64,000 nucleotides of DNA from the IMG/VR virus record IMGVR_UViG_3300001567_000262, positions 69,336 to 133,335 of that record. One strand, given 5' to 3'. This DNA comes from a virus. Made by a program: the position numbers and the translations under genes. This document shows, one piece after another, positions 4,558 to 30,143 of this stretch (position 1 is the first letter of the stretch; each line of letters starts with the position of its first letter). The notes beneath the pieces are model-generated. The model did no database searches. It was not told the origin of the DNA and was given only the letters and a program-made list of their open reading frames with translations.

Positions 4558-4938
4558 TTATTCGTAGGAACTGTTTTCAAGAGGTTCATCACTCGCATCT
4601 ATCACCGATGAACTGAAGTGAATTTTGAAATAGCGGCGGAATGCTTCGTAAGACCTGTCCTCGGGCCAGAACTTTTCATCTTTTACCCATGCATACAGTT
4701 CGTGTTCAAAAAGATCGGGATAGTGCAGTTTGAGCCATTCATCCAGATCGGCGTCCATCTCCGGGATCAGGTATGCTGACACCTCATCTCGGAGCACAGA
4801 CAATACTATGTCATCGCTTTCATCCGGGTTGTGTTTTGCCCATTCGAGAAAAGCATCAGTAGGTTCAAGAAATATTGAACTGCGATTGACGAACGAGAAA
4901 TAGGCGCCGCCTTGCGGTTTTTTCTTTCTGAAAAACAT
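4558..4938 (-). CDS. Conserved hypothetical protein
   Basis: 126-aa ORF with globular composition (FEHELYAW...FWPEDRSYEAFRRYF); last gene of the minus-strand run. Confidence 0.6.
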   Translation of the reverse strand: MFFRKKKPQGGAYFSFVNRSSIFLEPTDAFLEWAKHNPDESDDIVLSVLRDEVSAYLIPEMDADLDEWLKLHYPDLFEHELYAWVKDEKFWPEDRSYEAFRRYFKIHFSSSVIDASDEPLENSSYE

Positions 4939-4981
4939 TTCTCAGTCTCCGATATCAAATTTGTCATTTACCAATCTGCAT

Positions 4982-6114: not shown

Positions 6115-6798
6115 TTAATCCGTCAATGGTCCGCTGTAACCGCAGACGCCGGTGCGGGGTGAATTCACGATGGGAAGGAACATATCTTCATCGCATTCAT
6201 GCTTTTCGGCGCAGGTGGCGCACAGACAGCCTTTTCCCTCATAAACACACTCGCTGCAAATCCGCACTGCCGGTTTGCCGCAGACATCGCATGGAATTAC
6301 AGGCGGTTCGTTACGGGCGAGCAGGTGGACACCTTTTCCGGGTGAGGCGCCTGCATAAGCGGAGATGACTTTCAAGACAAGCTGGGTTGTTGTACCAAAG
6401 TCGTAATCGTGAGAAAATTTCATTCCGGGTTCCAGAACTTTGCCGATGGCAACGGCCATGCTGTGGTCGCCCATGGACTTGTCAGGCTGGGAATAATACT
6501 CCATTCCATCGATCTTAAAAACACTCAAATGCCCGCAACACTCGAGCCAGATATCCCGGAGAAATCCGTCGAACGCTTTGAGCGTCGTGGAGGCTGGCAC
6601 GTCAACATGGAGCCAGTACATTGGGCCGCCGTGGGCTTCTACGAGAATGTGGTATATCTCAGACCGTGGCGCCCCCGCGCCGCCGGATTCCGCTGCGCAC
6701 TTTTCACGGACGCATTTTTCAATATGCCTGGTCATCGCGTTTTTCTCGACAACCTCGCCGCACTTTTCACATTTCCCCTGAGACGTTTTTCTTGCCAT
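6115..6798 (-). CDS. pRiA4b ORF-3-like (IS1096 passenger TnpR family) protein with zinc-finger segments
   Basis: DIWLECCGHLSVF and HDYDFGTTT motifs; CxxC pairs at both termini; ends NSPRTGVCGY. Confidence 0.75.
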   Translation of the reverse strand: MARKTSQGKCEKCGEVVEKNAMTRHIEKCVREKCAAESGGAGAPRSEIYHILVEAHGGPMYWLHVDVPASTTLKAFDGFLRDIWLECCGHLSVFKIDGMEYYSQPDKSMGDHSMAVAIGKVLEPGMKFSHDYDFGTTTQLVLKVISAYAGASPGKGVHLLARNEPPVIPCDVCGKPAVRICSECVYEGKGCLCATCAEKHECDEDMFLPIVNSPRTGVCGYSGPLTD

Positions 6799-6839: not shown

Positions 6840-7616
6840 TTAAAAACCCGATATTTCCCACTGTACGGTATCCAGCAATGCCAGTGAATTTTCGTATTCA
6901 ATCCTATTCAGAAATACAAATCTGGTCATGCTTTCATCTATATTGGCCGAGAACATCAGAAAACTGTGAATATGACCTGCAAAAACAAATCGCGGCTTCA
7001 TTCTGCGCACGAGCTGATACAACGGCTCACATCCGAGATTTCTCTTGATTTGGCGATCCAAAACGGAGGGATCGGGCAAAACACTATCCCTTTCAATAAA
7101 GGGAGCCAGGTTTTCGACCGAAGGCCATTCATGGAAAAAGAGCATGTCTATCTCTTTCTCCGATTCAAACGCTTTCAAATCGTTCGAGGTTAAGTGGTTG
7201 TACTTTGCCTTGCCGATCCTGTCGTAATCTTTGGGCGAGTAGTTTCCTGACACCCATCCCATTCGCATGCCGTTCTCTTCGCAAACCCCTGATCTGCCGA
7301 GGTAGTAGAGGTTTCTTATGATCTCACTTTTTCCTTCGTACTCCGACAGCCAACTGTTGTTCTCGTGATTTCCACCAATGAAGTATGTCTTTCTGGGCAC
7401 TTTCTGGTCTGTATAATACTTACAGAAGTCACCCGTCTTCCGATGCCTTGCGGGCACATGTATATTTTTCAAATCTCGTTCGTCTCTTACTGCTTGAAAA
7501 TCGCCAAGTTGAACGACCAGATCGACATTGATGCCTTTTTCCTTCTCAATAAACGACACCCGGTCAAACATACAGTCAAGGCTTCCGTGAATGTCTCCCG
7601 CGATTGCTATGATCAT
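6840..7616 (-). CDS. Calcineurin-like metallophosphoesterase resembling RNA lariat debranching enzyme Dbr1
   Basis: GDIHG, GDFQAVRDERDL..VPARHR..GDF..YY, GGNHE, YYLGRSGV, HEWP, FAGHIH follow the Dbr1 motif order; likely start ATG 7616 (ORF open from 7769). Confidence 0.8.
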   Translation of the reverse strand: MIIAIAGDIHGSLDCMFDRVSFIEKEKGINVDLVVQLGDFQAVRDERDLKNIHVPARHRKTGDFCKYYTDQKVPRKTYFIGGNHENNSWLSEYEGKSEIIRNLYYLGRSGVCEENGMRMGWVSGNYSPKDYDRIGKAKYNHLTSNDLKAFESEKEIDMLFFHEWPSVENLAPFIERDSVLPDPSVLDRQIKRNLGCEPLYQLVRRMKPRFVFAGHIHSFLMFSANIDESMTRFVFLNRIEYENSLALLDTVQWEISGF

Positions 7617-7792
7617 GTGATTTATTCCACGGCAATTATCGCATCGAGGTTGCAGTATCTGGTCTTGTAGCTTTTGCCGGCGGCAGTTGTTTCCAAAATG
7701 GAAATAACTGAATCCTTTAAATGAAAGGTTGAACCCCTGTGGCCAATAAAACAGCTTTTCCAACACCACGCATTAGTTCCCCTACACGTTCC

Positions 7793-9847
7793 TTACCCCA
7801 TGCCCATCGCCATGATGGCAGCCTTGGTGGGGCTGTCGTAGAACTGCCATTGGATGGCGGTGAGGACTGAATCGGGGACTTCCGCGAGGTCCCGCTTATT
7901 CTCGCTCGGAATGAGAATGCGTTTCGCTCCGGATTCCACGGCCAACTGCATGCGCTCAGGCATGGCATTCACCTTTAGTAGCATGCCCTGAACACTCATC
8001 TCACCGAGCACTACGGTTCTATCCTGAACCGGTTTCGCAAGAATCGCGGAAACTATCGAAACGAAAAAAGCCACCGCCGTTTCAGCGCCTTCCTTGGCTT
8101 GGTTCAGGTTGATGGCCTGGATGGAAAAATCATATCCTTTCAAATCACGGTCAATCCCCAGATTCTTTATATTCGCCTTCAGGTATGCGTCAGCGGTTTT
8201 GATGGCCTCTTTCATTTTACTGGAGAGATTTCCGAGCGGAATTATTCGCCCCGAACCAGGATTCATCTGTGCCTGTAATAAAAACAAAGCGAGCCGATTA
8301 TCACTCATGTCTGTACCTATCGTATAAACGCTGCCCGGCGCGAGATTCCCTTCAGTGATCAGAGTGCCGCCGCCCATTTCCGGGAGCGTCACAAATGTCT
8401 CCTGTCCGGTCTCCTTGTGAGTGTATGAGAAGTTTGTATCCCAATACTCGATCCCGCCCATTTTCTTAAGCTGCTCTTTTACCCGCCTGCGCATCTCCAT
8501 CGCAATTGCGATGTATTCTTCCATTTCTTCGTCCGTAACTTCACCATCCGGATGGAGCAACTTTATCAGTCCGGATACGATCTTTCTTACGGCTTTCTGG
8601 TCGCGGCCACCGAGATGATTCCCGAATCTGAAATGCCGCTCCGCATAATCTGCATAGCTGTTTTTTCTTATTTCTCGGAACACTTCGGCAATGTAGTCTG
8701 TGACGACGCCGAAATGATTAGTGTACATTTCATCGCGGGTTTTCTGGAACTCCCAGCCGGGAACATAAGAATGAATGCGGTCGTAGAAAGCCGTGTCCAT
8801 TTCTTTCGGCATGGGATAGAAAAGGTTCGATGTGCGCACAATGGTCTCAATATCCCCATCAATGTTACCCACAAAGACAATCGAACCTTCCGCGGTTATG
8901 ATGTCCTTGCCGCGGCTGAATGTGCCGTCCTCCATGTATCCTTTCATGATGTTGATGCCGCTTTTATCAGAAAAACCGATGCCCGCCGCTTCGTCGAAAG
9001 CGACAACATCCCAAAGACAAACCAAGCCCCTTTGCCCGGAAGACAAATTCACGAACATCTGGGCAGTTGTTGTCTGCCCTCCGGAAACCAAATGGCAGTA
9101 TGGACTCATCTGCTGGTACACAAAGCTTTTCCCCGTCCCGCGCGGGCCTAGTTCCACCATGTTGAAGTTTTTCTCGACAAAAGGAATCAGTCTTAACATG
9201 CAGTGCAGTTTGCGGCGTTTTGTGTAATAGGGATGGTTCGGTTCGTATCCCATCGAGCGCATCATAAGGTCCAGCCACTGGTCTCGGGTGAACTTTTTTC
9301 TTCCTTCAATGAACTTCTCAATATTCCGGCTCGAAAGTTGAATCGGCCTGATGCTTTCGACAAAAAACGGACGGTTCTGTCCTTTGAAAATAAATGTCTC
9401 GTCATATTTCAGAACGACTTCCGCCCAAATCCCACCCATCAGCAGGCGGTCATGATTCTTTATTTCGCTTTCGTCTATGTTAATATAATCGAGATTCAGA
9501 TTGGACAGATTCGCCCAGTATTTATCATGCGTTTCGACGAGCTTCACGGATATTTTATCTATGATTTCATAAGTAGTATGCTGCTTGATTGCCGACTTGA
9601 TTGCCTCTCGCTCATCGGGTTTCACATATTTGCTCGCCAGCGTCTCCCTAACGAACTCCAGCCCCTCGTTGATCGTGTCGTCATCGGTCGAGGCGCAATA
9701 TTTCCCCAACAGAAATTCAATCACGAACGCCGGGACTCCGAAAGAGCTCCGCATCCTTCGCAGAAGGTCTTTCCGAACGACGAGGCCGGGAAAAACCTCA
9801 GTCGCAAGATGGTCCAAGTCGTCCAGAACTATTGGTTGATCTGTCAT
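7793..9847 (-). CDS. brxL: BREX BrxL (MCM-like AAA+ ATPase with Lon-like C-terminal domain)
   Basis: VELGPRGTGKS Walker A, VAFDE Walker B, TAFYDRIH, Lon-like GEMSV...ILIPSENKRDL; position after pglZ. Confidence 0.92.
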   Translation of the reverse strand: MTDQPIVLDDLDHLATEVFPGLVVRKDLLRRMRSSFGVPAFVIEFLLGKYCASTDDDTINEGLEFVRETLASKYVKPDEREAIKSAIKQHTTYEIIDKISVKLVETHDKYWANLSNLNLDYINIDESEIKNHDRLLMGGIWAEVVLKYDETFIFKGQNRPFFVESIRPIQLSSRNIEKFIEGRKKFTRDQWLDLMMRSMGYEPNHPYYTKRRKLHCMLRLIPFVEKNFNMVELGPRGTGKSFVYQQMSPYCHLVSGGQTTTAQMFVNLSSGQRGLVCLWDVVAFDEAAGIGFSDKSGINIMKGYMEDGTFSRGKDIITAEGSIVFVGNIDGDIETIVRTSNLFYPMPKEMDTAFYDRIHSYVPGWEFQKTRDEMYTNHFGVVTDYIAEVFREIRKNSYADYAERHFRFGNHLGGRDQKAVRKIVSGLIKLLHPDGEVTDEEMEEYIAIAMEMRRRVKEQLKKMGGIEYWDTNFSYTHKETGQETFVTLPEMGGGTLITEGNLAPGSVYTIGTDMSDNRLALFLLQAQMNPGSGRIIPLGNLSSKMKEAIKTADAYLKANIKNLGIDRDLKGYDFSIQAINLNQAKEGAETAVAFFVSIVSAILAKPVQDRTVVLGEMSVQGMLLKVNAMPERMQLAVESGAKRILIPSENKRDLAEVPDSVLTAIQWQFYDSPTKAAIMAMGMG

Positions 9848-9862
9848 ATAATCGCCTCCCGG

Positions 9863-12436
9863 TTACATTTCTCTTCCAACCGTTAATTTAATACCACCGG
9901 GTGGAAACTGCTCCGATGTTTCAATATCACGTATCTCCAATTCCAGCAGTTCGCCCTTTTTGAATGATAAAGCTGTATGAAAGAAAAGAGTCACGTTTAT
10001 TTCATTATCCTGAGCTTCGAGGCGCGCCTCTTTCGGCCCGCTGGCAAGTACAGATGATTTTTCTCCCGATTCGCCGGTGCGCAATATGTCAATTGCCAGC
10101 ATCCGTCCGGTCTCCACAAAAAGTGCCATCTGCCCCGCGCCGACTGACGATTTCGGCCTGAGCGTAACCTTTGCGGATGTCCGCATCAGTTCGAATGCCG
10201 GCAGCACCACTTCCACTCCGATGCGTTTTTCAAAAGTCTGTATTTTTGAAATCAGATGCGGGATGATAATCTCCTGAAGCGCGGCGCCACCGTGAGAGAA
10301 CGACTTTTCCGTTTTGAAAAACGACAGGCCCGGGGGAACCGCAATCCACACTTTCTCGTCCCACCGGCACGGGAAGGAAACAAGCGGCACATCCGCCCCG
10401 GCGGGAATCAGCGCGAACCTTTCCTTCAGAACATGACACCATTCCTTTTTACACTCGACTTCGGGAGGCAGCTTTTCCTCGTCCAGAAGAATGAACCCAT
10501 GGTCCGTTATCAAATGAACTTCCGGGTAACCCCACTGGTGCAATTTGTGAATCAGTAGAACCAGTCGTTTCACCTCAAGGCCGACATGGCGAACCAGATT
10601 GTCCGCGCTGCCGTGCCCGATATTGTCCAGTTCCTCATGCCCGAACACTACGAGAAGGTCTTTTATACCAGATGGTTTCGCAGCCGTGTTCTCTAGGTCT
10701 TCAATATCCCGGCAGTCCGCTCCAAATTCAGTCAATAATGATTTTCTGTTTTCAACTGCTGATGTGTCTTTTCCCTTCAACTTCGGATGAATGCTGTTGT
10801 TTTTTATTTCCAAGGACACGGCTGCTCCCTTCTGCGGGAGTAGCGCCGTCATCCCAACGGGCGTAACCGTAGGCAACGCGGCTTGCAATGCTTCGATCTC
10901 GACATCCTGTCCGAGCAGCATTTCCTTTATTGCATGAGCGCAGTCGTAACGGAGAGCGTCTACGATAACGACGGCCCGCTTCCCTCCAGCCGTCCAGATT
11001 TTCTCCTCAAGCCGGTCGGTGACATAAGGAATGCCCTCGATATCAGGAGTAGCCTGTCCAGAAAATCTTTCAAAGAATCGCTGGTTCAGCAGATTCACAT
11101 AAGACGCATAAGCGCGGTCGGCGACCTTGCTTATCGTCGGCATCGAACGCTCCATGGCTTCGAATCGCAATTTAAGATGCTGCTTGTCCACGAGGGGAGC
11201 CTGTTGTATATACAATAAGGCAAACTCAGCGGCGGTATTTCTTTTTTCGATTTCACTCTCTGCTTTTCCGCAAACCTCAATAAAGCAATCCAGCGCGCCA
11301 AGGAGCGACCAAGCGCCAATGGGCGCATTGCTCGCTTTGCTGAATTCCGCTTCCCGGGCTATCCGTTCCCGATTACGCGCAAAAAATTCCTTCAGAGCGG
11401 ATATCTTGTCGGCGGCTTCATTGAACGCATCCAGCGTTTTTTGCCAGCGGAGCGATACCAGATGCGGCAGCCCGAAAGAAACGCCATGTTTATCCGCCGC
11501 CCATGCCGAAAGATTGATGTTCGGCTCAACCTCTCTTATCCATCTGTCCCAAGCGGGCCTGCTGTTTGAATCCCTTAGCCACCGCTGGAGCAGTTGGATG
11601 TGATGATCGCGCAGTGCCTGCGCTGGGAGCCGGTTGAGAAATGGGTAATCGGCGGGTTCTCCATATCCGATGTAAGTTTCTGTAAGCGCCATAATTTCCA
11701 CGATGCCGCGAATCCATGCCGCTGGGTCGCCGCCCGCCGCGCCATATCCGTATCGTTCCCGTACCATATCGAGGAATTCACCAGACAGGGCTTTTTCATC
11801 AAGTGATTGCCACGTCATCTCCGGTGAAACTGCCATGTCCAGAATCGTCTGATCCATGTCACCGACGAGACGCGACTGCGCCAGTTCTGGCGTCAGTACG
11901 GCGCTCCAGAAATCTTGCGGTCTTTCAATAAACTTTGCCGTATATTTTGCCAGAATGGCATCCGCGCCGCCGTCGGCGAGTTTTCGTTGGTCCGATTGAT
12001 TTTCCGGCAGGTTCACACCGGCGAGGCGCAGGAATTTGAAAAGCGTCGGCTTCTTGCCGTCTATGCGCCACGTCGTGCCGCAGTATTTGTATTCCTCGAG
12101 CAGTTCCAGATGATGTGCGCCGTTCTCATCAGGCGAGTCGAGACGTTCTTCGGAGAGCGGCATATAAAAAACATAGCGGCGTTTTTTTCGTTGTTTTTCA
12201 GAAAGCTGTGCAAGATCGGCAAACACAGAGTGCTTGAGCCAAATCTGGCCCCGCTGTTGTTCCGGGTCGTATTCAAGGAGAATGAAAGGAGGCGACTTCA
12301 TCTCGAAAAGGCATTTTCTCAATGCAGGCAAAAGCCGCGCGAATTCTTTTTTCTCATCAAACCACAGGCACACTTGCGCTCGTTTCTCATATTGGAATCG
12401 CTGGGTGAATTGGCCGATGAGCGCTTCGAGAATCAT
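9863..12436 (-). CDS. pglZ: BREX PglZ alkaline-phosphatase-fold protein
   Basis: VIVDALRYD, LPTVTPVGMTALLP, ITDHGF, FSHGG..LQEIIIP motifs. Confidence 0.92.
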   Translation of the reverse strand: MILEALIGQFTQRFQYEKRAQVCLWFDEKKEFARLLPALRKCLFEMKSPPFILLEYDPEQQRGQIWLKHSVFADLAQLSEKQRKKRRYVFYMPLSEERLDSPDENGAHHLELLEEYKYCGTTWRIDGKKPTLFKFLRLAGVNLPENQSDQRKLADGGADAILAKYTAKFIERPQDFWSAVLTPELAQSRLVGDMDQTILDMAVSPEMTWQSLDEKALSGEFLDMVRERYGYGAAGGDPAAWIRGIVEIMALTETYIGYGEPADYPFLNRLPAQALRDHHIQLLQRWLRDSNSRPAWDRWIREVEPNINLSAWAADKHGVSFGLPHLVSLRWQKTLDAFNEAADKISALKEFFARNRERIAREAEFSKASNAPIGAWSLLGALDCFIEVCGKAESEIEKRNTAAEFALLYIQQAPLVDKQHLKLRFEAMERSMPTISKVADRAYASYVNLLNQRFFERFSGQATPDIEGIPYVTDRLEEKIWTAGGKRAVVIVDALRYDCAHAIKEMLLGQDVEIEALQAALPTVTPVGMTALLPQKGAAVSLEIKNNSIHPKLKGKDTSAVENRKSLLTEFGADCRDIEDLENTAAKPSGIKDLLVVFGHEELDNIGHGSADNLVRHVGLEVKRLVLLIHKLHQWGYPEVHLITDHGFILLDEEKLPPEVECKKEWCHVLKERFALIPAGADVPLVSFPCRWDEKVWIAVPPGLSFFKTEKSFSHGGAALQEIIIPHLISKIQTFEKRIGVEVVLPAFELMRTSAKVTLRPKSSVGAGQMALFVETGRMLAIDILRTGESGEKSSVLASGPKEARLEAQDNEINVTLFFHTALSFKKGELLELEIRDIETSEQFPPGGIKLTVGREM

Positions 12437-14329
12437 TCATACCACCTTTGCGATGCGAAGCACTCCGGCCTTCTGGAGAGGTTCGATGTTCACTTTGACG
12501 CCGTCGTTGATGTCGGGGTCCCAGCCTTTGGGTCGTTCCTTCGGCGATTTCCAAGGCGTCAGGATGCGGAAATCTTTGTCCCCGCCTTCCTTGCCCTCGC
12601 GGCGGCCTTCCTGTACCGCTTCGAGCAATCGGTCGAGTTCTTGTGTCTCTTCGAGCCTTGCCTGCCAATCAATGCGGTCCGCCTCCCTGTTTTCTTTTGC
12701 CGCCATCGCGGCCTCGCGCCGCATCAAATCAATCGCGTCCCGCAGATAGCTGCCCCGCAACTTCGCGAGTCGGTTTGCATCGAACTTGTGATAGTGAACC
12801 AGCGCCCCGAACGCCGCTTCGCCTTTGTTCTGCCTGCTCGCGATGTGCCATATTATCGGGCGATTCTTGTATAAAGAAGCGTGATATTCGAAATACACTT
12901 CTTCCAGCCATTGCCGGATGCTCTCCACGGATTTGTATCCCTTTACCCTGTTCTTGAGTTCATTGACGATCTCGATTTCAACCTGATTTATGTCGCGTCC
13001 GAGAAACAGTAACGCAAGTTCTTTATGAACTCGGTCTATCAGTGCGGTTTCGCCGGATACTGCCATGAACGGCACGATGCCGTCTTCGTCTTCATCTACC
13101 ACGCGCTTGACGATATACGATAACAGCCGCCACACGTGTTCCATGCGTTTCTGTTCCGCACTCTTTCCTTCCATCTGCGGCCAGATCAGTTCCGGCGGCT
13201 GCGTTCCCATGATCTCTTCGATCTCTGCTCGCTTTTTGTCCGGGATGCCATACAGATGATACGCATCATCGTTCAGTTCAGCATAAAGTTTCTGAATTCT
13301 TAAATCCTCGGCGCTCTCTAACTCTAAGAGCTTATCGAGTCTTTCCGGTATACACATTCCACTTTCAATAATGCTCTCTCTCAGTATCCAAGTCTTATCA
13401 AAATGTGTCGAGATTTCGTTTCCGTTATCCCAAGCGGATTTTGCGTCGAAGATAAGTTTTGCTCTATTCTCAATACTCTCTCGTTTGTTTGCTGAGGGTT
13501 TCGGAATAGGAACTTTTTTTATCATTCCAACTTCGTATTTACCAAATGTTGAAAAGAAGCCCAGCATGAAAAGAAAAATATGGCTCGAAAAAATCCCGAG
13601 CAAAAAGAATTGATCTGATTCGTTCAATGGGAAAAATGAGTGCCCTACATGTCCATGAATCCCGGTTCCGGGCAGTATTCTTGGGCTAAAACCTCGTTGT
13701 GAGCGGTATGACCAAGTCAGTCCAGGTTTGAAATAATGTTCAAGACTTGGCAAAGCATTTCCTGAAGCTTTTAGAGCATCTCTATTCTCTGGTCGCCAAT
13801 CAATTACCAAATCAATATCTGAGTAAAACCTACAAAACTCTCCACCTTTTGCGAATGAAACCCAACCTGTATTTTGCACAACTTCCCAATACTGTCTTAC
13901 CCATTTCGGATCGTCTCCTGTCGCTTTTCCCTGTCTCGCAAAACCCCAAGTTGGATCAGAAGCGGGATGTTCTCTAAAAATGTGTGATACAAGTGCAATA
14001 CGACGATAAGAGAGTGGCGATCCTTCTATTGATAAGAAGTCGCGGCGTGCTACATCGAAACGTACTTTTTCTGCGTCATTTCTTATAGCTTGTACAAACA
14101 TATTATTACGACGATCAGATTGTTTTTTTGCTGGTTTATAGCGTTCCACATCGAAGAAAGCAGCCTTCTCGCCCTCCGTAACAACATAATATGCCCGCTC
14201 GGCCTGTTCCGGTGTTGTTTCGATGCCCTCTCGTGCCTGTGTAGCCTGAATGGTGGAAACCATAAGTTTCCGTCGCAGGTCAGGATCGGCAAGGATAGCT
14301 TTTATGTTGACTCTTTTATTCTTCGCCAA
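12437..14329 (-). CDS. pglX: PglX C-terminal half (target recognition and C-terminal domains) with N-terminal VbhA/FicA-like antitoxin helix
   Basis: FLSIEGSPLSY, FAKGGEFCRFY...VIDW, YFKPGLTWS, LYKNRPIIW, DINDGVKVNI are PglX C-half signatures; first ~50 aa contain TQAREG; TTG start 1 nt after the Fic stop. Confidence 0.8.
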   Translation of the reverse strand: MAKNKRVNIKAILADPDLRRKLMVSTIQATQAREGIETTPEQAERAYYVVTEGEKAAFFDVERYKPAKKQSDRRNNMFVQAIRNDAEKVRFDVARRDFLSIEGSPLSYRRIALVSHIFREHPASDPTWGFARQGKATGDDPKWVRQYWEVVQNTGWVSFAKGGEFCRFYSDIDLVIDWRPENRDALKASGNALPSLEHYFKPGLTWSYRSQRGFSPRILPGTGIHGHVGHSFFPLNESDQFFLLGIFSSHIFLFMLGFFSTFGKYEVGMIKKVPIPKPSANKRESIENRAKLIFDAKSAWDNGNEISTHFDKTWILRESIIESGMCIPERLDKLLELESAEDLRIQKLYAELNDDAYHLYGIPDKKRAEIEEIMGTQPPELIWPQMEGKSAEQKRMEHVWRLLSYIVKRVVDEDEDGIVPFMAVSGETALIDRVHKELALLFLGRDINQVEIEIVNELKNRVKGYKSVESIRQWLEEVYFEYHASLYKNRPIIWHIASRQNKGEAAFGALVHYHKFDANRLAKLRGSYLRDAIDLMRREAAMAAKENREADRIDWQARLEETQELDRLLEAVQEGRREGKEGGDKDFRILTPWKSPKERPKGWDPDINDGVKVNIEPLQKAGVLRIAKVV

Positions 14330-14330
14330 G

Positions 14331-15185
14331 TTAAGATGTCTCCCAGCTTTCGATAGCTTCTTCTTCCCATGTTCTGATGAACGCGGCGAGCGGCGCGTAG
14401 TCTTTGTGGATGCGTCCTCTTTCGCAAGCTTCGTAATACGCCTCTTCGTCTCGTCGGCGATTGTACTGATTCAGCGGCAACAGATCATTCTGCATGAGCA
14501 GCAGATTGCAGATAATGAACGCCGCCCGGCCATTGCCCTCGCGGAACGGATGGATGGCTATGAATTCGTTCATTGCCTCGCTCACATAGTCATACAGTGC
14601 GCCATCATCATCTGAAATAAAAGGTGAGCGCGAAAGAACATTCGCTTCGTATTCCTCCATCAACGGTTGGATGCCACAGGAAGGAAGCGGCCATTTTGTC
14701 GGACCGTCGCCTTTATGCAGGTCCACCGTGCGCCATCCTCCGGCAAATGGATAAATGAACCCCATTAGTTCGTGGTGTATCTGTCGGATGAGTTCTAATG
14801 TCAGTGGAGCCGGATCGGGTTTGTCGAGCAGATTTTCAACAAACTCCATCGCACGACGGACGCCCTCATCCTCTCGGCGATTTATCTCCTCGCGGTCGAG
14901 ACACCCGGCATAATTGAGGCACAAGCCATCTCCGGTCTGAATCCATTCCCAGCTTCTTGCGTAGTTGTTCCACGGATTAACGACGATGGCGGGCGATTTC
15001 TGCTCGGGGAACAGACCACACAGTTCATCGAGACGCTTTTTTTCAAGTTTGCGCTGGGCAGGCGGGACCACATAGAACGATCCGGGTGCGGCGGCCTGAT
15101 AGAACTCCTGCGCGTTGCGTCCCTTTCCGCTCTGGAAGCGGAAACCGTAGTCCTTTTCCTCCCACCGCCAGCGAATGCCGCTCAT
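14331..15185 (-). CDS. Fic/Doc family toxin inserted within pglX
   Basis: HPFREGNGRAAF motif, IRQIHHELM..IYPFAGGWR; no internal S/GxxxEG inhibitory motif seen; GGAGG SD and ATGA overlap with upstream pglX-N stop. Confidence 0.85.
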   Translation of the reverse strand: MSGIRWRWEEKDYGFRFQSGKGRNAQEFYQAAAPGSFYVVPPAQRKLEKKRLDELCGLFPEQKSPAIVVNPWNNYARSWEWIQTGDGLCLNYAGCLDREEINRREDEGVRRAMEFVENLLDKPDPAPLTLELIRQIHHELMGFIYPFAGGWRTVDLHKGDGPTKWPLPSCGIQPLMEEYEANVLSRSPFISDDDGALYDYVSEAMNEFIAIHPFREGNGRAAFIICNLLLMQNDLLPLNQYNRRRDEEAYYEACERGRIHKDYAPLAAFIRTWEEEAIESWETS

Positions 15186-17269
15186 ATCGTGCCTCCCTTG
15201 AGGACGATTGCGGCTGTTTCAACGGTTGCGCCGTCCAATATGCCGAAACCGAGATCGAGCATGACCAGAAGCGGGTTGCGCTTGAGCAGTATTTCAGTTC
15301 GAAGCTTCTCGAACGTGGTTAGCGTGACGAAAGTTGATGACACCAGAGCTCCGACATAACCGTATGGTTCTATAAGTTGTGTGGCGCGATCTATGAAGGC
15401 GGCATAAATGTCGTTATATGAAAGCGGATATAATTTCCTGATCAGTTCTCTTATCTTCGGCACGAAGCTGCCGTAAGGAGGATTCATGACGATTGCGTCG
15501 AAGCGATGAGAGAGGATGTCGAGGAGTTTGAGACCACGAGCGGTGTCTTCGTAAAAAAGGCGACTCGCCGGGTCTTTGCCGTTCGTGGTCGCGGCATTTT
15601 CCACGGCTGCTAACAATTCATTCTTCAATTCCTCTGCTTCCTGTTGCATCAGCCTGCGCTCGAGGACAAGCTGCTCGGCGACGGCGCGGTCGCCCTCTGC
15701 GACGATGGATTCAAGGTCAAGCTGTTTCAGTTTTCTTTCATCGAACAGCTTTGTCATTCCCTTTGCGCGGCCTCGCTCCTCGATCCAGTCGTCGAGTACA
15801 CGGGACACGCTCTCCGAGACTTGGACGAGTGCGCCGAGTTCTCCAGTGTACTGAAGGTTTTCCCAGAGCGTTTTAATGAGTCGTTCCTGAAGCTTCGAAT
15901 CGCCGAATTTTTTATTGAGATTTTCGATTAGGTGCGTGAGTTGTTCCTGCCCGAGGTCAACTGTATTCGCAACAACGAGGTTAGTGCGACGAACATGGAC
16001 ATCTTCAGGTGAAAAGCCGTGCTGGCGGGCCGATTCCTTTGCCGTCAGCAGCAGAGACAGAGTGGCGATTTGGATAGCACGGGGGTCTATGTCTATTCCA
16101 AATATATTGTTTTCGATAATTGCGGCCGGGATATCCTTTTTATTTTTCACGGACGGCTCGCTGGGCCAGCCTTCTTTTCCGGCGTTCTCGATTTCATCGA
16201 GGTACATTTGGTAAAACAATCCGAACGCGTATTGCCCGAAGTGCATAGTTCCGCATGCGGGATCAAGGAGAGCTATATCTCGCGCGAGTTTGAATGTTTC
16301 GATCCGGCCTTCCTCGGTGACACGCTGGTATCGGATTTTCTCGCCGGTACGCGGAACAAGATAGTCGGCAACGGGCTCGTCCGATACGCGTTCATCCGGT
16401 AGCGGTGGTGGACCTTGCGGCTTCAGAGATGAATCAGGATGCATCTGGAGCCAGAGACGGCCGAGAGTATTGTCCACCAGCGTTTTCACGACCCAAGACG
16501 GAGTATAGAACTGGTTGATAACGGAAAGCTCATAGGAACTCCGAGGGGTACCCTTGTTTTCATCGCGCACTTTCTTTTTCTCGTCGCGATTGAAAAACTG
16601 ATAGACCCAGCCAAGAAAATCAACAGCCTTGAAAGCGTCTTCCGGCAACTCGCTGTTGAGCAAGCCGATGACTTTCACAAGGCAGGCATGGGTCGGCCAG
16701 ACGCAGGCATATTCATGTTCGGGGTCGAAAAGGATGCGAATTTCCGTTGTGATATGGCGGAATGCGGCGGTGAGCGCATCTCGCAGGAGCGATTCTTCGG
16801 CGTCCTGTTCGTACTTGTATCGTTCGCCACCGGCTTCCCTGAAATCGCGCAGATATCGGGAACGCGCCTGATCTGATATCGGAGTGATTATTTCCGTCAG
16901 TTCACTTTCCGCGCCCGATTTCCCCGGCGTTGGGAGAAAAAGCAATTTGCGCGCTTCCATGCTTTTGAGTCCTACGAGGCGATTCAGCAGAGTGTATGTG
17001 AGTTCGCGGATAACATTGTCCCACCCGCGCTGTGGGGTGCCTTCCGCGAGAGTGTCGCGGTTAAGCAGAGCTTCCACGCGCTCCCGCACGGCTTTGTCTG
17101 CATCGGACAGAGGCATTTTATCGAGCGGCTGATGTTTCCCGTCCGGTCGCAGACCAAGGCGCCTTAGCTGCGCGGTGAAATCCGTCTCAAGTTCCTTGCG
17201 GAGCTTGGGAACCCAGGACTTGACCGCTTCCTTGTGAGTATCTGAAAGTGATTTACGTTCGATATTCAC
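15182..17269 (-). CDS. pglX: PglX N-terminal half (N6-adenine methyltransferase catalytic domain)
   Basis: QFYTPSWVV, LDPACGTMHF (motif I), FGIDID, VMNPPYG (motif IV), DIYAAFIDR; ends ETAAIVLK. Confidence 0.9.
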   Translation of the reverse strand: MNIERKSLSDTHKEAVKSWVPKLRKELETDFTAQLRRLGLRPDGKHQPLDKMPLSDADKAVRERVEALLNRDTLAEGTPQRGWDNVIRELTYTLLNRLVGLKSMEARKLLFLPTPGKSGAESELTEIITPISDQARSRYLRDFREAGGERYKYEQDAEESLLRDALTAAFRHITTEIRILFDPEHEYACVWPTHACLVKVIGLLNSELPEDAFKAVDFLGWVYQFFNRDEKKKVRDENKGTPRSSYELSVINQFYTPSWVVKTLVDNTLGRLWLQMHPDSSLKPQGPPPLPDERVSDEPVADYLVPRTGEKIRYQRVTEEGRIETFKLARDIALLDPACGTMHFGQYAFGLFYQMYLDEIENAGKEGWPSEPSVKNKKDIPAAIIENNIFGIDIDPRAIQIATLSLLLTAKESARQHGFSPEDVHVRRTNLVVANTVDLGQEQLTHLIENLNKKFGDSKLQERLIKTLWENLQYTGELGALVQVSESVSRVLDDWIEERGRAKGMTKLFDERKLKQLDLESIVAEGDRAVAEQLVLERRLMQQEAEELKNELLAAVENAATTNGKDPASRLFYEDTARGLKLLDILSHRFDAIVMNPPYGSFVPKIRELIRKLYPLSYNDIYAAFIDRATQLIEPYGYVGALVSSTFVTLTTFEKLRTEILLKRNPLLVMLDLGFGILDGATVETAAIVLKGGTI

Positions 17270-20200
17270 TTAATTACCACCGTGAATCCTTTTCGAATTC
17301 TCGTTTTGAGCTGCTCGCCGATGACGGAGAGTGTCTGATCCACATCGGCTTCGGTTTTCAGCCGTTTTCCCGCAAGTTCCTGAGACGGCTGCCAGTCGCA
17401 AACTTTTTCTGCTTCACCTGTCTTCGTGGGAGCGGCAAGGCCGATCAGTTCGGTTTCGACCTGGCCGCGATAACCGGGCAAAGCCATCAGAGTCTGGGCA
17501 AGAGAAGTCAGGCTACTCTTTGCGGCGGCAGCGAGAAGCGTTTCCGCTGAACTTAGAGGAATTTCCGGATAGTTGCACGGCCCGCCGGGACCGAAGACCT
17601 TTTCAAGGACGGCATCGCGGCTTTCAGCGGGGGCATTTTTGTAGGCACTCCCACCTTTTATCGTATTTATAAGATTTTCAATCTCGGTCTGCACCTTTTT
17701 GTATGCATCTTTGTAAGCGCCCCGGTAAGCGCCAAGCGCAGTTTCGTACGCGGCCCTGTAATCCGGCCAGCGATCAACAACCGATTTGTCACCGATGATC
17801 GCATCCATATCCTTCAGCGCCTGTCCGAGTCTCGTGCTTTCGGGATTGTCGGCGGGAATCGGATGATTTGCGGCAAGATTTGCGAGTTTGCGGGATGCGA
17901 AATAAGCCTGATGCCGGTTGTCGTCAAGGAAGGCGCGAATCGCGGACATGGCCTTCTGGAAGCTCTTCCATTCCGCGGCTCTCGACAGGAAGGCCGTCAC
18001 CGCTTTTGTCGGGTCTTTGATCGTTACAGGTTCATCGAGCGCGGCGCCTGCATCCAATACGATGTCAGAAATGGGAATTCCCATTTCCGCTCTGCTTTTT
18101 GCATCCTGTAGGTCAGATTTTAGTTTTTCACCGAGTTTTCTTACGGCGGATGCGATTGCATTGCCGGACTCCGGGATGCCGTTCATTCCCAAGGCGATGA
18201 GTTCCTTGCTTGCCAGCTTAATCTGCTCCACGGAGAGACTGATTTCGGCCAGTCGGAACGTGACTTTCTTGAAAGTGTTTATTTTCTGGAAGTTGTCGTT
18301 CGTGCCTTTGTAATCGTAAACAGGGGTCGGCCCACCCGGAGATTGCTGCTCCATATAAACCGCACCGGCCCTGAAACAGGCAGCGAGCACAATACGAAGA
18401 ATTTCATCCGGCCAGCCGAACGGCGCGCGGGAAAAACCTTTGAATCCCTTACGGTCATTTGCATCCATGAGCGCGACGCCGGTGGGATCAATGTCTTCGT
18501 CTTCGAGGTCTTTCAGAACTTCGAGCACCTGAGCTACCAAATCTGACTGCTGCTGTAGATTTCCCTGAGAATCAAACAATCCCAGATCTGGCGCGACCTT
18601 ATCGAGCGCGGTTGTCGCAGGGTTGAGAATGGCTTTGATGCTTTTATCAAAGTCATAAGATTTATCGGCAATGCTGAACCGAGGATAAACATTTGGAATA
18701 ACCGAAGTTAGCGCGGTTTGAACAGGCTCCTTGAAATCGGTGGCTCTTTCTAATTCATTTTCCAAGCCGCCGTAGTAAACCGTTCCTTTAAGAAATGCCT
18801 GTTCCAAATCCTTAACAAGCGATGTTTTCAGATCATCCCGTTCCTTGCGTTTTTCAGCAAGCGCATCCTGCGTGGATTTCGAAGTATCCTCTGTGAATCG
18901 CTTATCTCCACACACTTTCACGAGGGCTTCATATCGTTTGAATCTCAGTTCGAGATTATCGGGGACATCGGCAACCCACCATACCTTGCGCCCCTTAGCG
19001 CTGTCGGCCTGATTGCGCCGTTTGATTTCTTCGATCTCCTGTTTTCTGCCGGACATGAGCGGGCTGACGAAACAAACTTCGATTTCAGACCCGGTTTCAA
19101 TTGCCTCGCCATCGAGATAAACACCATAGGAAAATGGAACTTTCGTTATGCCGTATGGAACCGTGAAATTCAGAAGTTTTTTCTTCGTTGTCAGTTCCAT
19201 CTTGGTGATTTCCTGAGATGTTCTGCGGACGGCAGCGATACTGATGCTCTTCGAACCACCGGAACGAACCATTTCCTGAATATACTGCTCGATAGTGCGC
19301 TCCTGTTCGTCCAGGTATTTCCATTCTCCGGTTGCTTCGTCGCGAGCTACATAACCCGCTTCCTGAAGCTTGCCCAATGTCTTTTCCACATTCTCTCGTA
19401 ATTGCGGGATATCCGTTTTGAAATCGGTCACAAGCAACTTTGCAATCGTTTCGGAGATTCTTGGGACCCATGGAACCCGCTGTAACAACCATAGCACTTT
19501 CAGCACTTTCGCCGGGTCAATCGGAGTTCCGGTCACGCGCTCATCAGATTCCCGAATAGACCGTACACCCGCGGCGCCGAGATATTCTTGGGACAAAAGA
19601 TCATTTTCAACAGCGTCGAATATCATGTCGAAGCTCACAACGGCGCCCACTTCGGAGTCTGCGATTTCCTGCAAGGATGTCATGACGACGGAAATCATGG
19701 AGCGCACACCGCCGGACAGCCGGAAGCCGGACAATGCTTCGAAGATATCCTGAGAAAGCCGTATCTGGTGCGGCAGAAGCGGATAGCAATCGATGAACGC
19801 CCGTTCATCCACAGTGCCGAGAAATCTGCTTGCTTTCAGATCAGCAAGCTGTGAAATATATCCTTCATTGTCCAGATACAACTTTTTTAATTGCGGCTCT
19901 TGCGCCGGATATTTTTTTAGAATCCTCTCCGATACAACTTTATTGATTTCATCCGAAATGAGATGAGGCTTTAGTTCGAATCTCGCATTAAGGCGTCCGA
20001 TAAGAGCCGGTTGGAAGTTTGTCCTGTCGACGACTTTTTCCAAGTCCTGCTGGCTGGTTACAAATAGCCAGACTTTACCTTTCCCTTTGTTTCCTATCAT
20101 TTCCGCGATACTGTTTAGCTCGCTGATTTTCTCGTTCGAGTCGCCGATAAATGTTCCCATTTCGTCGATTACGAAAATCAAGTGCTGAACTTTTCCGCCG

Positions 20201-21000
20201 GTTGTTTTTTGTGCATCAACCCATGAAACGAGTTCATCCGCGAGGCTCTCGGCTGTGAGCTTTGCGTGCCGGAACATGTCGTCTATCGCTTTTTTGGCGT
20301 CATTTCGGTCTTTATATTCAACCGGGTCCACATCAGGCATGATCTCGGCAAGACGACGGCGGACAGACATCAAATCATCGCGCCCCTCGGCGCTTTTCCA
20401 TGGCACTCCATGCTTTGACTCATAGACTTTTTCGAGGGTTTCCAATAATCCCTTCTGGGCCATCTTTCTTTCAATACGAGCGACCACAAAATTTTCTGAC
20501 AGTCCGATGCTTCTATAAAACTCGCCCAGTATTATTTCTCCGACAGAGTTCGGATTTGTCAGTGATTGTCTGCTTCTTATTTCGAACGCAATGGTCTTTA
20601 TCTGTGTGTTCTGTTTTATTTCGCCCAAACGCGCACGAATATTTTTACCTCGAGCTGTATCGGATATGTGTTTTGAAAAAAGATCAATGCACTTTTCGCC
20701 AGATGTGTCACCGATCTCGTCGTTTTGAAGCAAATATCCCAATACTTTTGAAAAATGGGATTTCCCTGAACCGAAAAAACCTGAAATCCAGATACCCATG
20801 ACATCTCTGGACGTTCCTCCCAAACGAAGGGTTTCGCTGACCTGGGTAAATGTATCGACTATTCGTTTAAGCTCATCCTCAATTTTGTCGGTGACGACAA
20901 ACTCCCGCATTTCAGTGGCCAAGGCCGCATCGTCATAGACCTTTACGACACCTTCCACCTTGACCCCGATATCCCTTTTGATTATTTCACGAATGGTCAT
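17266..21000 (-). CDS. brxC: BREX BrxC P-loop ATPase
   Basis: WISGFFGSGKSHF Walker A, FVIDEMG Walker B, FVTSQQ, CYPLLPHQ; 1244 aa. Confidence 0.92.
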   Translation of the reverse strand: MTIREIIKRDIGVKVEGVVKVYDDAALATEMREFVVTDKIEDELKRIVDTFTQVSETLRLGGTSRDVMGIWISGFFGSGKSHFSKVLGYLLQNDEIGDTSGEKCIDLFSKHISDTARGKNIRARLGEIKQNTQIKTIAFEIRSRQSLTNPNSVGEIILGEFYRSIGLSENFVVARIERKMAQKGLLETLEKVYESKHGVPWKSAEGRDDLMSVRRRLAEIMPDVDPVEYKDRNDAKKAIDDMFRHAKLTAESLADELVSWVDAQKTTGGKVQHLIFVIDEMGTFIGDSNEKISELNSIAEMIGNKGKGKVWLFVTSQQDLEKVVDRTNFQPALIGRLNARFELKPHLISDEINKVVSERILKKYPAQEPQLKKLYLDNEGYISQLADLKASRFLGTVDERAFIDCYPLLPHQIRLSQDIFEALSGFRLSGGVRSMISVVMTSLQEIADSEVGAVVSFDMIFDAVENDLLSQEYLGAAGVRSIRESDERVTGTPIDPAKVLKVLWLLQRVPWVPRISETIAKLLVTDFKTDIPQLRENVEKTLGKLQEAGYVARDEATGEWKYLDEQERTIEQYIQEMVRSGGSKSISIAAVRRTSQEITKMELTTKKKLLNFTVPYGITKVPFSYGVYLDGEAIETGSEIEVCFVSPLMSGRKQEIEEIKRRNQADSAKGRKVWWVADVPDNLELRFKRYEALVKVCGDKRFTEDTSKSTQDALAEKRKERDDLKTSLVKDLEQAFLKGTVYYGGLENELERATDFKEPVQTALTSVIPNVYPRFSIADKSYDFDKSIKAILNPATTALDKVAPDLGLFDSQGNLQQQSDLVAQVLEVLKDLEDEDIDPTGVALMDANDRKGFKGFSRAPFGWPDEILRIVLAACFRAGAVYMEQQSPGGPTPVYDYKGTNDNFQKINTFKKVTFRLAEISLSVEQIKLASKELIALGMNGIPESGNAIASAVRKLGEKLKSDLQDAKSRAEMGIPISDIVLDAGAALDEPVTIKDPTKAVTAFLSRAAEWKSFQKAMSAIRAFLDDNRHQAYFASRKLANLAANHPIPADNPESTRLGQALKDMDAIIGDKSVVDRWPDYRAAYETALGAYRGAYKDAYKKVQTEIENLINTIKGGSAYKNAPAESRDAVLEKVFGPGGPCNYPEIPLSSAETLLAAAAKSSLTSLAQTLMALPGYRGQVETELIGLAAPTKTGEAEKVCDWQPSQELAGKRLKTEADVDQTLSVIGEQLKTRIRKGFTVVIK

Positions 21001-21035: not shown

Positions 21036-21575
21036 TTATCTCCAGAACAATTTCACGGAAAGGTAGTTCCCTCCATCGGCCTGCTTCATGAAATGGAGTT
21101 TCCCACCACGTTCTTCTCCAGGAAAAGATAAAGCGATTCTGCAATTCAGGTCTCGAAGTCCGCGCAAAACCTCACCAAATCGGACGAGTGGATACAACGA
21201 TGAAGTTGAATACAGAATGATTGCGCATCGCGGTTTCTCCGATGCGATTTCTTCGATTCTTGATATAAGAGCAGCTTCTATTCGCTTGGAAAGACCTTGT
21301 TTCATCCATACGTAGTCGTCGAATTCATAATCCTTTACATCTTCGAGTCCGTCTTCACCCACTGTCTCAAACAGGAAAGATGAAAGATCGAGAACGAAAA
21401 ATGGAATGTCGCGCGTTTTGAGAGTAGGCAGGAAGGTATCATTTAAATATTCTCGGTAATCCAGTTCCTTGTCGGGCGGATATATCAGAATAATGGAATT
21501 ATCAGTCTTAACGCCGCCGTTCTGCTTCAGAGGCTCGCTCAGAATTTGAAGAAGTTCGTCGAACATTATCGGCAT
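21036..21575 (-). CDS. brxB: BREX BrxB (DUF1788-like)
   Basis: IYPPDKELDY...SFPGEERGGKLHFM...NYL pattern; position between brxA and brxC. Confidence 0.8.
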   Translation of the reverse strand: MPIMFDELLQILSEPLKQNGGVKTDNSIILIYPPDKELDYREYLNDTFLPTLKTRDIPFFVLDLSSFLFETVGEDGLEDVKDYEFDDYVWMKQGLSKRIEAALISRIEEIASEKPRCAIILYSTSSLYPLVRFGEVLRGLRDLNCRIALSFPGEERGGKLHFMKQADGGNYLSVKLFWR

Positions 21576-21577
21576 GA

Positions 21578-22360
21578 TTATCTCTTGTCCCAGTCCATTT
21601 CTACGATGTCGCCTTGTATTCGGAATCTGAGTTCGCCCATACGGTTGAGTTCGCCCAGCGCGTCTATTACTTCAATACCATCCAATGCCAGAAGTCGGAA
21701 TGCTGTGGAGCGCAACATATCAAGCGGCGATGTCTGTAGGAGATTTAAAGCGCGCAAAATAAGTCTGATGGGAGCGCCATATAATGCCGGTCGAACGCTG
21801 ACCTTCTTAAGTTTCCCGGTTGCGAGACCAAAATCTCTGATACTTGCCATATAATGCTGGACAACTCTCAAAAAAGTCTCATGCGACCATTTTTCAATCT
21901 CAGGATGCTTCTTCAAAGACGCTTTAAGAAATGTTTTAACATCCTCAGTTCTTAGTTCGGAAGGAGATTGTTTCAGACGTGGGTAAAGCCATTCAGTGCC
22001 TAAATCGAATACCATACGGTCATTCAATGAAAAAAGGATGTATGCAGTCAGCCCTCGTTCTGGTTCTGATTTACAGAGTTGCCATTCATTCCAGAACATG
22101 GAAAATAATGGTTGATTGCAATCAAGAACGTATCGTGGCCTTAGTTCCTTCCATTGTTTTTCTCTGGCCGACGATGACGACCGCGAAAGCACATTTTTTT
22201 CGACTACCAATGCTCTGAAACCATCTGTTGAGAGGGGCGTCTCGGTTGATTCCAGAAGAATTCTCAAATCCGTGTACATGGCTGAACGCGCCGATAATCG
22301 TGATTGGTAAGGCCTTCTGCCGTCCAACGCCGGTATCGTTATTTGTACTGCGTTATTCAT
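21578..22360 (-). CDS. brxA: BREX BrxA (DUF1819-like DNA-binding protein)
   Basis: YQSRLSAR, KNVLSRSSSSAR, WS.ET..RVVQHY...RDFGL; first gene of the operon; start ATG 22360 or GTG 22486. Confidence 0.78.
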   Translation of the reverse strand: MNNAVQITIPALDGRRPYQSRLSARSAMYTDLRILLESTETPLSTDGFRALVVEKNVLSRSSSSAREKQWKELRPRYVLDCNQPLFSMFWNEWQLCKSEPERGLTAYILFSLNDRMVFDLGTEWLYPRLKQSPSELRTEDVKTFLKASLKKHPEIEKWSHETFLRVVQHYMASIRDFGLATGKLKKVSVRPALYGAPIRLILRALNLLQTSPLDMLRSTAFRLLALDGIEVIDALGELNRMGELRFRIQGDIVEMDWDKR

Positions 22361-22507
22361 TTCTTTTTCTATTCCCATTGGCCCCAATGGGGATGTCGTT
22401 GAAAGGATTTTATTACAGTCAAAGGCGGTTAACCCCATATCGTTTTTGACATCCCCGTCATGTTTTCCTTTTCGAACTCTTTTCACTGCTCAAACAACAG
22501 TTGTCGA

Positions 22508-24920: not shown

Positions 24921-24937
24921 GTTCACCATTCCCTTTC

Positions 24938-30081: not shown

Positions 30082-30143
30082 CAGCAGCCCCCTCAAAACC
30101 TGACGTTCTTATTATACAACAGAAAAAGCAGTTTGTGAACAGA

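Follow-up and report, generated by a model that had tools for sequence, protein, structure and literature searches.

Known systems and the locus studied

The PrrC anticodon nuclease is masked by the whole EcoprrI type Ic restriction-modification complex and is freed by the Stp peptide of phage T4, serving as a backup if the defence is attacked. The bacteriophage exclusion (BREX) systems of type 1 are built around another methylation enzyme, PglX (also called BrxX), which in the canonical systems of Salmonella (8C45/8Q56) and E. coli HS (9EWZ/8ZEK) is a single chain; in E. coli BrxX the hinge between the methyltransferase domain and the target recognition domain (TRD) covers residues 638-675, with the TRD counted from residue 651 (PMC11842806). 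In the class I Fic pairs Fic-1/AntF (8WT0), VbhT/VbhA (3SHG) and EcFicT/YhfG (5JFF), the Fic protein has no internal inhibitory helix (alpha-inh), and a separate polypeptide carries the motif A-[S/T]-x-x-x-E-G-[ILV]-E, which closes the first helix of a hairpin. AntF, the antitoxin of Fic-1, is a hairpin of two helices, the first of which ends with the Glu, and the second Arg of the Fic-1 motif (R146), which is needed for AMPylation, makes a hydrogen bond to the antitoxin Ser and a salt bridge to the Glu (PMC13327609). Here we describe a type 1 BREX locus found in a stretch of 64,000 nucleotides (nt), hereafter the window, which corresponds to positions 69,336 to 133,335 of the IMG/VR virus record IMGVR_UViG_3300001567_000262. 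In this locus (12437-17269, minus strand) pglX is divided into two genes, pglX-N and pglX-C, a fic gene occupies the gap, and the second half of PglX begins with an extension that resembles the partners of class I Fic proteins.

A split pglX with fic in the gap

All six type 1 BREX core genes were recognized by Pfam and NCBIfam profiles in one operon, in the canonical order and on the minus strand. The single PglX of about 1200 amino acids (aa) that characterizes type 1 BREX is replaced by two open reading frames (ORFs), one of 695 and one of 630 aa, which fic separates. The features of this part of the operon, from upstream to downstream, are the following (E, expectation value).

15182-17269, minus strand: pglX-N, 695 aa; positions 1-614 of the NCBIfam BREX-1 PglX profile (E 1.4e-108) and Pfam Eco57I
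15192-15197, minus strand: GGGAGG Shine-Dalgarno sequence for fic, within the end of pglX-N and 6 nt 5' of the fic ATG
15182-15185, minus strand: ATGA, in which the TGA stop of pglX-N overlaps the fic ATG (read from the sequence)
14331-15185, minus strand: fic, 284 aa; Pfam Fic (E 1.5e-13)
14517-14552, minus strand: Fic signature HPFREGNGRAAF, whose last residue is Phe, not the canonical second Arg (read from the sequence)
12437-14329, minus strand: pglX-C, 630 aa; positions 608-982 and beyond of the NCBIfam PglX profile
14165-14329, minus strand: N-terminal extension of pglX-C, residues 1-55, a candidate alpha-inh/antitoxin-like module with a TTG start
14225-14242, minus strand: TQAREG motif, T30-G35, closing helix 1 of the extension (read from the sequence)
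12437-14164, minus strand: body of pglX-C, with the last methyltransferase strands, the hinge, the TRD and the C-terminal domain (NCBIfam profile)

The pglX-N product, which ends in ...ETAAIVLKGGTI, contains the N-terminal domain and most of the methyltransferase domain and aligns to residues 6-610 of Salmonella PglX; its gamma-class methyltransferase motifs I (DPACGTMHF) and IV (NPPY) are intact and are conserved in 37 loci, including an unsplit one (L026). The profile is taken up again, from position 608 onward, by pglX-C from residue 45, and the alignment of pglX-C to Salmonella PglX covers residues 645-875 and 1014-1156 of the latter, residue 93 of pglX-C corresponding to residue 645; both the TRD and the C-terminal domain are present. 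Because the profile and the Salmonella alignments leave nothing of PglX missing, the first 45-55 residues or so of pglX-C are extra. As judged from these alignments, PglX is divided some 40 residues short of the hinge between the methyltransferase domain and the TRD, so that PglX-C would also supply the last part of the methyltransferase domain.

A preliminary description of the locus, made from the sequence alone, had presented it as a division of PglX into a methylation gene and a specificity gene. The two genes are indeed there, but the division is not a clean one, the last part of the methyltransferase domain being in PglX-C. The same description had stated that almost no PglX sequence is missing, which agrees with the coverage of the whole profile by the two halves. 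The end of pglX-N, the Shine-Dalgarno sequence and the overlap with fic that it had pointed out are each present in the sequence, and pglX-C does begin, as it had read, one base past the fic stop (TTG at 14329, after TAA), with TQAREG near its N-terminus at residues 30-35.

A search with pglX-C gave more than 700 homologues, the best 120 of which are all 605-644 aa long, 56-63% identical and nearly all aligned from residue 1 of the query. Such a recurrence goes well beyond what chance would give. Gene tables and tblastn led to about 40 loci with the order brxA-B-C, pglX-N, fic, pglX-C, pglZ, brxL, in which the typical sizes are about 695 aa for pglX-N, 287 aa for fic and 630 aa for pglX-C, with brxC and pglZ flanking; the pglX-N/fic/pglX-C order is found in genomes and on about 20 metagenome contigs. 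The architecture is present in at least six phyla (Acidobacteriota, Myxococcota, Pseudomonadota of the class Gammaproteobacteria, Spirochaetota, Thermodesulfobacteriota and Gemmatimonadota). In four host genomes the module formed by the extension occurs once each, in pglX-C, and the closest unsplit relative, L026, has neither the extension nor fic. The GGGAGG/ATGA type of junction between pglX-N and fic recurs in the orthologues, and in most of them the fic stop overlaps the ATG of pglX-C by 8-14 nt, so that the extension is translated as part of PglX-C. The conservation across phyla, the translational coupling and the intact motifs I and IV make a random disruption of pglX unlikely, as the preliminary description had argued, and support the view that the split pglX with its Fic is a selected design and not damage.

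Some loci depart from this organization. Two of them (L021 and L142) contain an additional 2.9-3.4 kilobases (kb) between fic and pglX-C and retain the extension, indicating that the slot takes further cargo while the extension stays; in L021 (1843-5000) the insert includes an ORF of 912 aa flanked by short repeated peptide-coding elements. On an IMG/VR contig (L103, 1-3986) unrelated proline-rich ORFs replace pglX-N and fic upstream of an intact pglX-C with its extension, an arrangement that could be a rearrangement or a chimeric assembly.

The Fic enzyme and the N-terminal extension of PglX-C

The fic family is a tight one, with orthologues 60-67% identical and a fully conserved catalytic loop. 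A regular-expression search for [ST]xxxE[GN] inside Fic gave no match in the window or in 18 orthologues, which bears out the earlier assignment of this Fic to the class I type, without internal inhibitory motif. In the PDB comparison made with the family profile, VbhT was aligned from its residue 13, and FICD only past its own alpha-inh. The sequence RREDEG at Fic residues 103-108 was considered as an internal inhibitory motif and rejected, as it aligns to a FICD helix located downstream of the FICD alpha-inh. The best fold matches of the Fic model are FICD, the Bep proteins, VbhT and EcFicT, and among the PADLOC profiles the BREX Fic scored best with the candidate system PDC-S04 (E 4e-33), SoFic giving 2e-12. 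Residues 1-95 of Fic (14901-15185, minus strand) contain the conserved stretches WRWEEKDFGFRF..., EYYQA and NYAGCL and have no counterpart in VbhT; this region of about 95 aa, modelled with a predicted local distance difference test score (pLDDT) below 50, might be a surface contacting PglX or the substrate.

The extension is the best-conserved part of PglX-C, the mean pairwise identity being 82.5% for residues 23-55 and 72% for residues 1-22, versus 61% (0.611) for residues 56-630. AlphaFold2, run with an alignment of 79 sequences, modelled it with a pLDDT of 89 as a short helix (9-14) followed by two longer ones (16-33 and 40-59), the whole forming an antiparallel two-helix hairpin in which Arg33-Glu34-Gly35 closes helix 1. 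The motif reads A-T-Q-A-R-E-G-I-E with its surroundings in the window; its Glu and Gly are near-invariant among the orthologues, Arg33 is near-invariant in the main clade of loci, and YhfG of E. coli K-12 can be aligned with it in register (ASRRLEGVE versus ATQAREGIE). In the ESM-Atlas, whose neighbours count as leads and not as proof by the calibration of that tool, the closest neighbours of the window's extension include just two named families, YhfG (0.84 and 0.83) and, as part of one cluster, VbhA (0.80).

The main clade, with about 40 loci, combines a Fic motif HPFREGNGRxxF, in which the Phe is invariant, with an extension motif [T/I/L/M/V]QAREG. A divergent clade (P0368/L126-L127, L128, L131 and L020) has the same architecture, with an extension about 32% identical to that of the window, and pairs HPFREGNGRxAR in Fic with [S/A]QRQEG in the extension. 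The canonical signature HxFx(D/E)GNGRxxR is found in the divergent loci L127, L128 and L131 and is absent from the window and the main clade. In [S/A]QRQEG the Arg stands two residues before the Glu, as in YhfG, whereas in the main clade it adjoins the Glu, and there the former S/T position is largely hydrophobic. The VbhA motif (SQRLEG) matches that of the divergent clade at five of six positions. The positions of Fic and of the extension that change together are those which touch each other in Fic-1/AntF, and this is suggestive of a shared interface.

At one locus (L015) fic has been cut down to a remnant of about 35 codons, located at 4900-5000, in which an HKGDGPTKWP fragment is joined to the C-terminal tail. 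There both halves of PglX are intact ORFs, and in the extension three near-invariant residues, Y47, Y48 and V49, have been replaced (Y47S, Y48S, V49A). This decay fits a function of the extension that depends on Fic, and argues against a pure role in the assembly of PglX.

Taken together, these sequence data support the view that the extension works like a Fic partner of the alpha-inh type, and we consider it probable that it binds Fic in that manner. The preliminary description had gone further in calling it an antitoxin helix fused to PglX-C: the register of the motif, the hairpin, the YhfG and VbhA neighbours, the co-variation and the decay in L015 are in agreement with this proposal, but no significant link by profile or fold was obtained, and the extension could not be placed in the YhfG (PF10832) or VbhA (PF18495) families.

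Homologues of the extension in phages

A profile of the extension gave 359 matches among 1.84 billion representative proteins. At least 82 of the best 150 cluster representatives stand alone as proteins of 50-100 aa that follow the consensus R-V-x-I-x-A-I-L-x-D-P-x-x-R-R-x-L-M-V-x-x-I-x-A-T-Q-A-R-E-G-I-x-T-T-x-E-Q-A-E-x-A-Y-D, and in some of the remaining ones the module is attached to an end of an unrelated sequence. The extension and its free-standing homologues gave nothing against Pfam at E<=10 or against NCBIfam and PHROGs at E<=0.01. Many of the free-standing homologues, with a length of 55-70 aa, are located on phage contigs: free-standing or extended copies of the module were found on 27 IMG/VR viral contigs, and at least four of six assembly contexts are phage- or prophage-like, as shown by genes for terminases, baseplate and PAAR proteins and by rows of small ORFs. 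The nearest ESM-Atlas clusters also carry viral labels, and a phage copy has a YhfG neighbour at 0.86. The phage copies share the derived AREG of the main clade and up to 77% identity over 44 residues with it; in a tree built from only 62 columns and without a true root, they fall into a single clade (support 98/95) that arises inside the main PglX-C extensions.

No Fic was detectable near the module in the six assembly contexts, two of which are contigs of only about 1 kb, and none was detected by tblastn within the 4-kb flanks on the 27 IMG/VR contigs. A conserved neighbour of the phage copies was looked for and none was found; some neighbours of the IMG/VR copies are phage helicases, RtcB and ATPases. 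The extension gave no tblastn match in the GenBank phages. The module was absent from 400 further genomes sampled in the same phylum as G001, a Bryobacterales genome in which the locus L003 lies, and within G001 it was found only in its own pglX-C. On the simplest reading of these homologies, phages would carry a substitute for the helix of PglX-C, as would be sensible if free Fic harms the phage.

The module is also part of larger proteins. Fusions (P0280, P0372, P0329/L111 and P0292/L109) join it to a protein with a zinc-protease-like HELGH motif, to an alpha/beta hydrolase (Hydrolase_4, E 3e-11) and to two recurrent C-terminal extensions of unknown family. A phage ORF that runs off the locus L088 (860-8159) and exceeds 2,432 aa has the module near its middle; an HExxH-like motif and a glycine motif like that of S-adenosylmethionine-dependent methyltransferases were seen in it by eye. 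This giant ORF had no match in Pfam, and the same holds for most fusion partners of the module; the ORF may encode a large virion or anti-defence protein with several domains.

Proposed mechanism and alternative explanations

We propose that Fic is held on the two-part PglX and becomes active once that contact is lost in infection, a reading to which we give about an even chance. The loci represent a conserved subtype of type 1 BREX in which PglX is a two-gene enzyme and a Fic of the class I type is encoded in the gap. As this Fic has no free antitoxin, its trans-acting hairpin would be provided by the first 55 or so residues of PglX-C, which sit directly before the strand predicted to complete the methyltransferase fold. 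PglX-N, Fic and PglX-C, whose translation is coupled, would most likely form a single complex, with Fic kept silent, or in another catalytic mode, beside the hinge between the methyltransferase domain and the TRD. The contact could be lost in the case where PglX-C is missing, displaced, cleaved or conformationally changed, and the freed Fic would modify a cellular target, which by analogy may be GyrB/ParE or EF-Tu, thereby halting phage growth; the free-standing phage modules would act as antidotes.

Concerning the trigger, the release of Fic upon inhibition (for instance by Ocr-like proteins) or loss of PglX-C, by which Fic would guard the enzyme as the preliminary description had suggested, is by itself a rather doubtful version of this scheme. 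Alternatively, the movement of the PglX hinge on unmethylated DNA could free Fic, which would then be a sensor-coupled effector. We also put forward, tentatively, a version in which Fic is a conditionally released effector docked at the PglX hinge and phages captured the host pglX-C module to silence it; the captured module, free-standing or embedded in virion proteins, would constitute a counter-defence against BREX by antitoxin capture.

Several observations weigh against the proposal that Fic is held by the extension and released. The co-variation is one evolutionary split, 3 loci versus about 40, and is not statistical, and the evidence from decay comes from the single locus L015. The free-standing phage homologues never adjoin a Fic gene, and the module might have a partner other than Fic. 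The S/T position of the motif varies among the orthologues (T/I/L/M/V/S/A). The comparison of the small-protein profile with YhfG by hhalign placed the motif in register with an E of 0.35 over 13 columns, and the extension of either clade had no match in Pfam at E<=10, where YhfG itself scores 5e-24. Single-sequence and profile searches of the PDB with the extension returned no VbhA, YhfG or AntF, the best match being an unrelated serine hydrolase (E 0.0018), and Foldseek and VIA-align on the extension model gave generic helical hairpins alone, with Z at most 5.2. In the pairs VbhA/VbhT, YhfG/Fic and AntF/Fic-1 the antitoxin gene comes first, whereas here it is the toxin. Finally, since a Phe replaces the Arg that Fic-1 needs for AMPylation, the Fic of the main clade may not be a classical AMPylating toxin.

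Three other explanations could be issued. The first takes up this last point and holds that Fic and the extension form a complex that works constitutively as an enzyme or regulator of BREX and is not toxic, possibly a de-AMPylase or a transferase with a different donor, acting on a component of BREX or on its target; the extension would be a catalytic cofactor giving Glu34, and perhaps Arg33, in trans, and not a releasable antitoxin. Besides the Phe at the position equivalent to Arg146 of Fic-1, it is favoured by the near-invariant Arg33, which adjoins Glu34 and is seen precisely where Fic has lost its Arg, and by the joining of the extension to the PglX strand without a linker, suggesting a permanent complex. 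However, the divergent clade keeps the canonical Fic motif together with an SQRxEG partner, like real toxin-antitoxin pairs, the free copies on phages make more sense if unbound Fic is harmful to the phage, and a substrate has yet to be named. We regard this explanation as unlikely. If it were correct and the complex were a permanent non-toxic enzyme, it would be a new layer of regulatory modification in BREX.

According to the second explanation, which appears less likely still, Fic belongs to a selfish toxin-antitoxin cassette that landed in the cargo slot of a naturally split pglX and whose antitoxin, once its stop codon was lost, became continuous with PglX-C; the outcome would be addiction only, which would stabilize the locus or the mobile element bearing it, with no phage sensing. 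The position of the locus within a prophage or integrative island with recombinases is in agreement with such an origin, as is the tolerance of L021 and L142 to 2.9-3.4 kb more between fic and pglX-C. Yet the fusion has been kept across phyla at 60-67% identity with an extension that is better conserved than PglX itself, a nonsense or frameshift mutation past residue 55 of pglX-C would not free the toxin, so that the addiction to pglX function would be weak, and the phages bearing the module argue for a role in the conflict between phage and host.

The last explanation, the least probable of the three, makes the extension unrelated to Fic, either a zipper for the PglX halves or a DNA- or protein-binding hairpin that phages use too, with Fic as independent cargo regulated otherwise and phage copies that might block PglX assembly; it draws on the lack of significant similarity to known Fic antitoxins, on HU/IHF-type helical hairpins as the best structural neighbours (Z about 5), on phage homologues that never adjoin a Fic gene and on the fusion of the module to unrelated domains, but the extension goes with Fic in the examined loci and the unsplit L026 has neither, its motif co-varies with that of the Fic active site, it decays in L015, where the split is kept without Fic and a zipper would still be needed, and its nearest named neighbours in the language model are Fic antitoxins only.

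Surrounding island

The record, 133 kb long, carries a provirus classification, and the BREX-Fic operon is located on or beside the prophage. The other BREX core genes of the window are listed below.

21578-22486, minus strand: brxA (Pfam BrxA, E 4.3e-21)
21036-21575, minus strand: brxB (Pfam BrxB, E 5.2e-07)
17266-21000, minus strand: brxC, 1244 aa (Pfam BrxC domains and DUF6079), whose stop overlaps the start of pglX-N
9863-12436, minus strand: pglZ, 857 aa (Pfam PglZ, E 7.3e-18), abutting the stop of pglX-C
7793-9847, minus strand: brxL, 684 aa (Pfam BrxL_N, BrxL_ATPase and Lon_C)

Directly downstream of brxL lie a calcineurin-like metallophosphoesterase gene (6840-7769, minus strand) and a PRiA4_ORF3-like gene (6115-6798, minus strand). 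Two further genes with a Fic domain are found less than 30 kb away, at 4982-6028 and 28990-30096, both on the minus strand and each with a PADLOC SoFic match of E about 1e-49; the first one has a weak C-terminal match to DUF977. Directly downstream of the second, an 834-aa protein (26443-28947, minus strand) combines an archaeo-eukaryotic primase (AEP) domain of the TOTE conflict system with a ResIII/DEAD helicase. At the edges of the defence island and inside it lie two large serine recombinases, two DUF2924 genes and a tyrosine integrase (1073-2776, plus strand; 23343-24989, 24938-25429, 25597-25995 and 31040-31948, minus strand). The region 32531-61000, on the plus strand, contains prophage structural genes including a large terminase, baseplate J and P2 tail protein I, together with one protein of 1544 aa that has a Mu F-like domain and one of 1189 aa that has a Dam methyltransferase domain of the D12 class.

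Comparison with known systems

Type 1 BREX and the class I Fic pairs are known kinds of system, and it is the presence of Fic in a split pglX, with the helix on the half bearing the specificity, that is apparently undescribed. A recent survey of BREX (NAR 2026, PMC12839542) mentions neither 'Fic' nor 'split', and full-text literature searches on BREX, PglX and Fic found nothing relevant. What is new here is the antitoxin-like extension, the Phe/Arg co-variation, the locus with the Fic deletion and the phage homologues. If our proposal is true, this would be, to our knowledge, the first case of a Fic antitoxin-type helix fused to a subunit of another immune system, with Fic wired in at the hinge that moves upon DNA recognition by PglX. 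A widespread natural subtype whose methyltransferase is wired to Fic would offer a genetically testable handle on the way in which BREX blocks phage replication. The phage-borne homologues of the helix, with hundreds of metagenomic members and no Pfam or PHROG family, would form a candidate anti-defence family.

With the class I pairs Fic-1/AntF, VbhT/VbhA and EcFicT/YhfG, the locus shares a Fic without internal inhibitory helix, the motif closing helix 1 of a hairpin, here a predicted one, on a separate polypeptide, the translational coupling of both genes and a Fic core for which profile and fold searches both point to VbhT and EcFicT. In these pairs, however, the partner is a free protein of about 50-60 aa encoded upstream (yhfG before fic in E. 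coli, AntF before fic-1), whereas here the candidate partner forms the N-terminal part of a BREX subunit of 630 aa encoded downstream of fic. The second Arg of the Fic motif, present in the class I pairs, is a Phe in the main-clade BREX Fic, which has in addition the conserved N-terminal region of about 95 aa.

The canonical type 1 BREX systems of Salmonella and E. coli HS have the same six genes, the full PglX sequence and the same motif I and NPPY; PglX is a single chain in them, while here it is cut, with Fic in the gap and an extension of 55 aa on the second half. PrrC, compared here by gene architecture alone, is likewise a latent toxic enzyme in the operon of a methylation-based defence. 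It is masked by the restriction-modification complex, whereas the candidate mask of the BREX Fic is an antitoxin-like module fused to the half of PglX that bears the specificity.

SoFic with its partner AS1 (PMC12249575) shares with the present locus the use of Fic in phage defence, proposed here, and a small neutralizing protein, here a candidate one, encoded downstream. SoFic, a class II protein of about 360 aa, contains both an alpha-inh of its own and a C-terminal domain, whereas the BREX Fic has 284 aa and no internal motif; AS1 is free-standing, whereas the BREX module is fused to PglX-C. The Dmd protein of phage T4, which acts against RnlA and LsoA, is unrelated in sequence to the host antitoxins. 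The phage copies of the BREX module would resemble it as small phage proteins possibly replacing a host antitoxin, but they are clear homologues of the host module, with this role as a candidate one.

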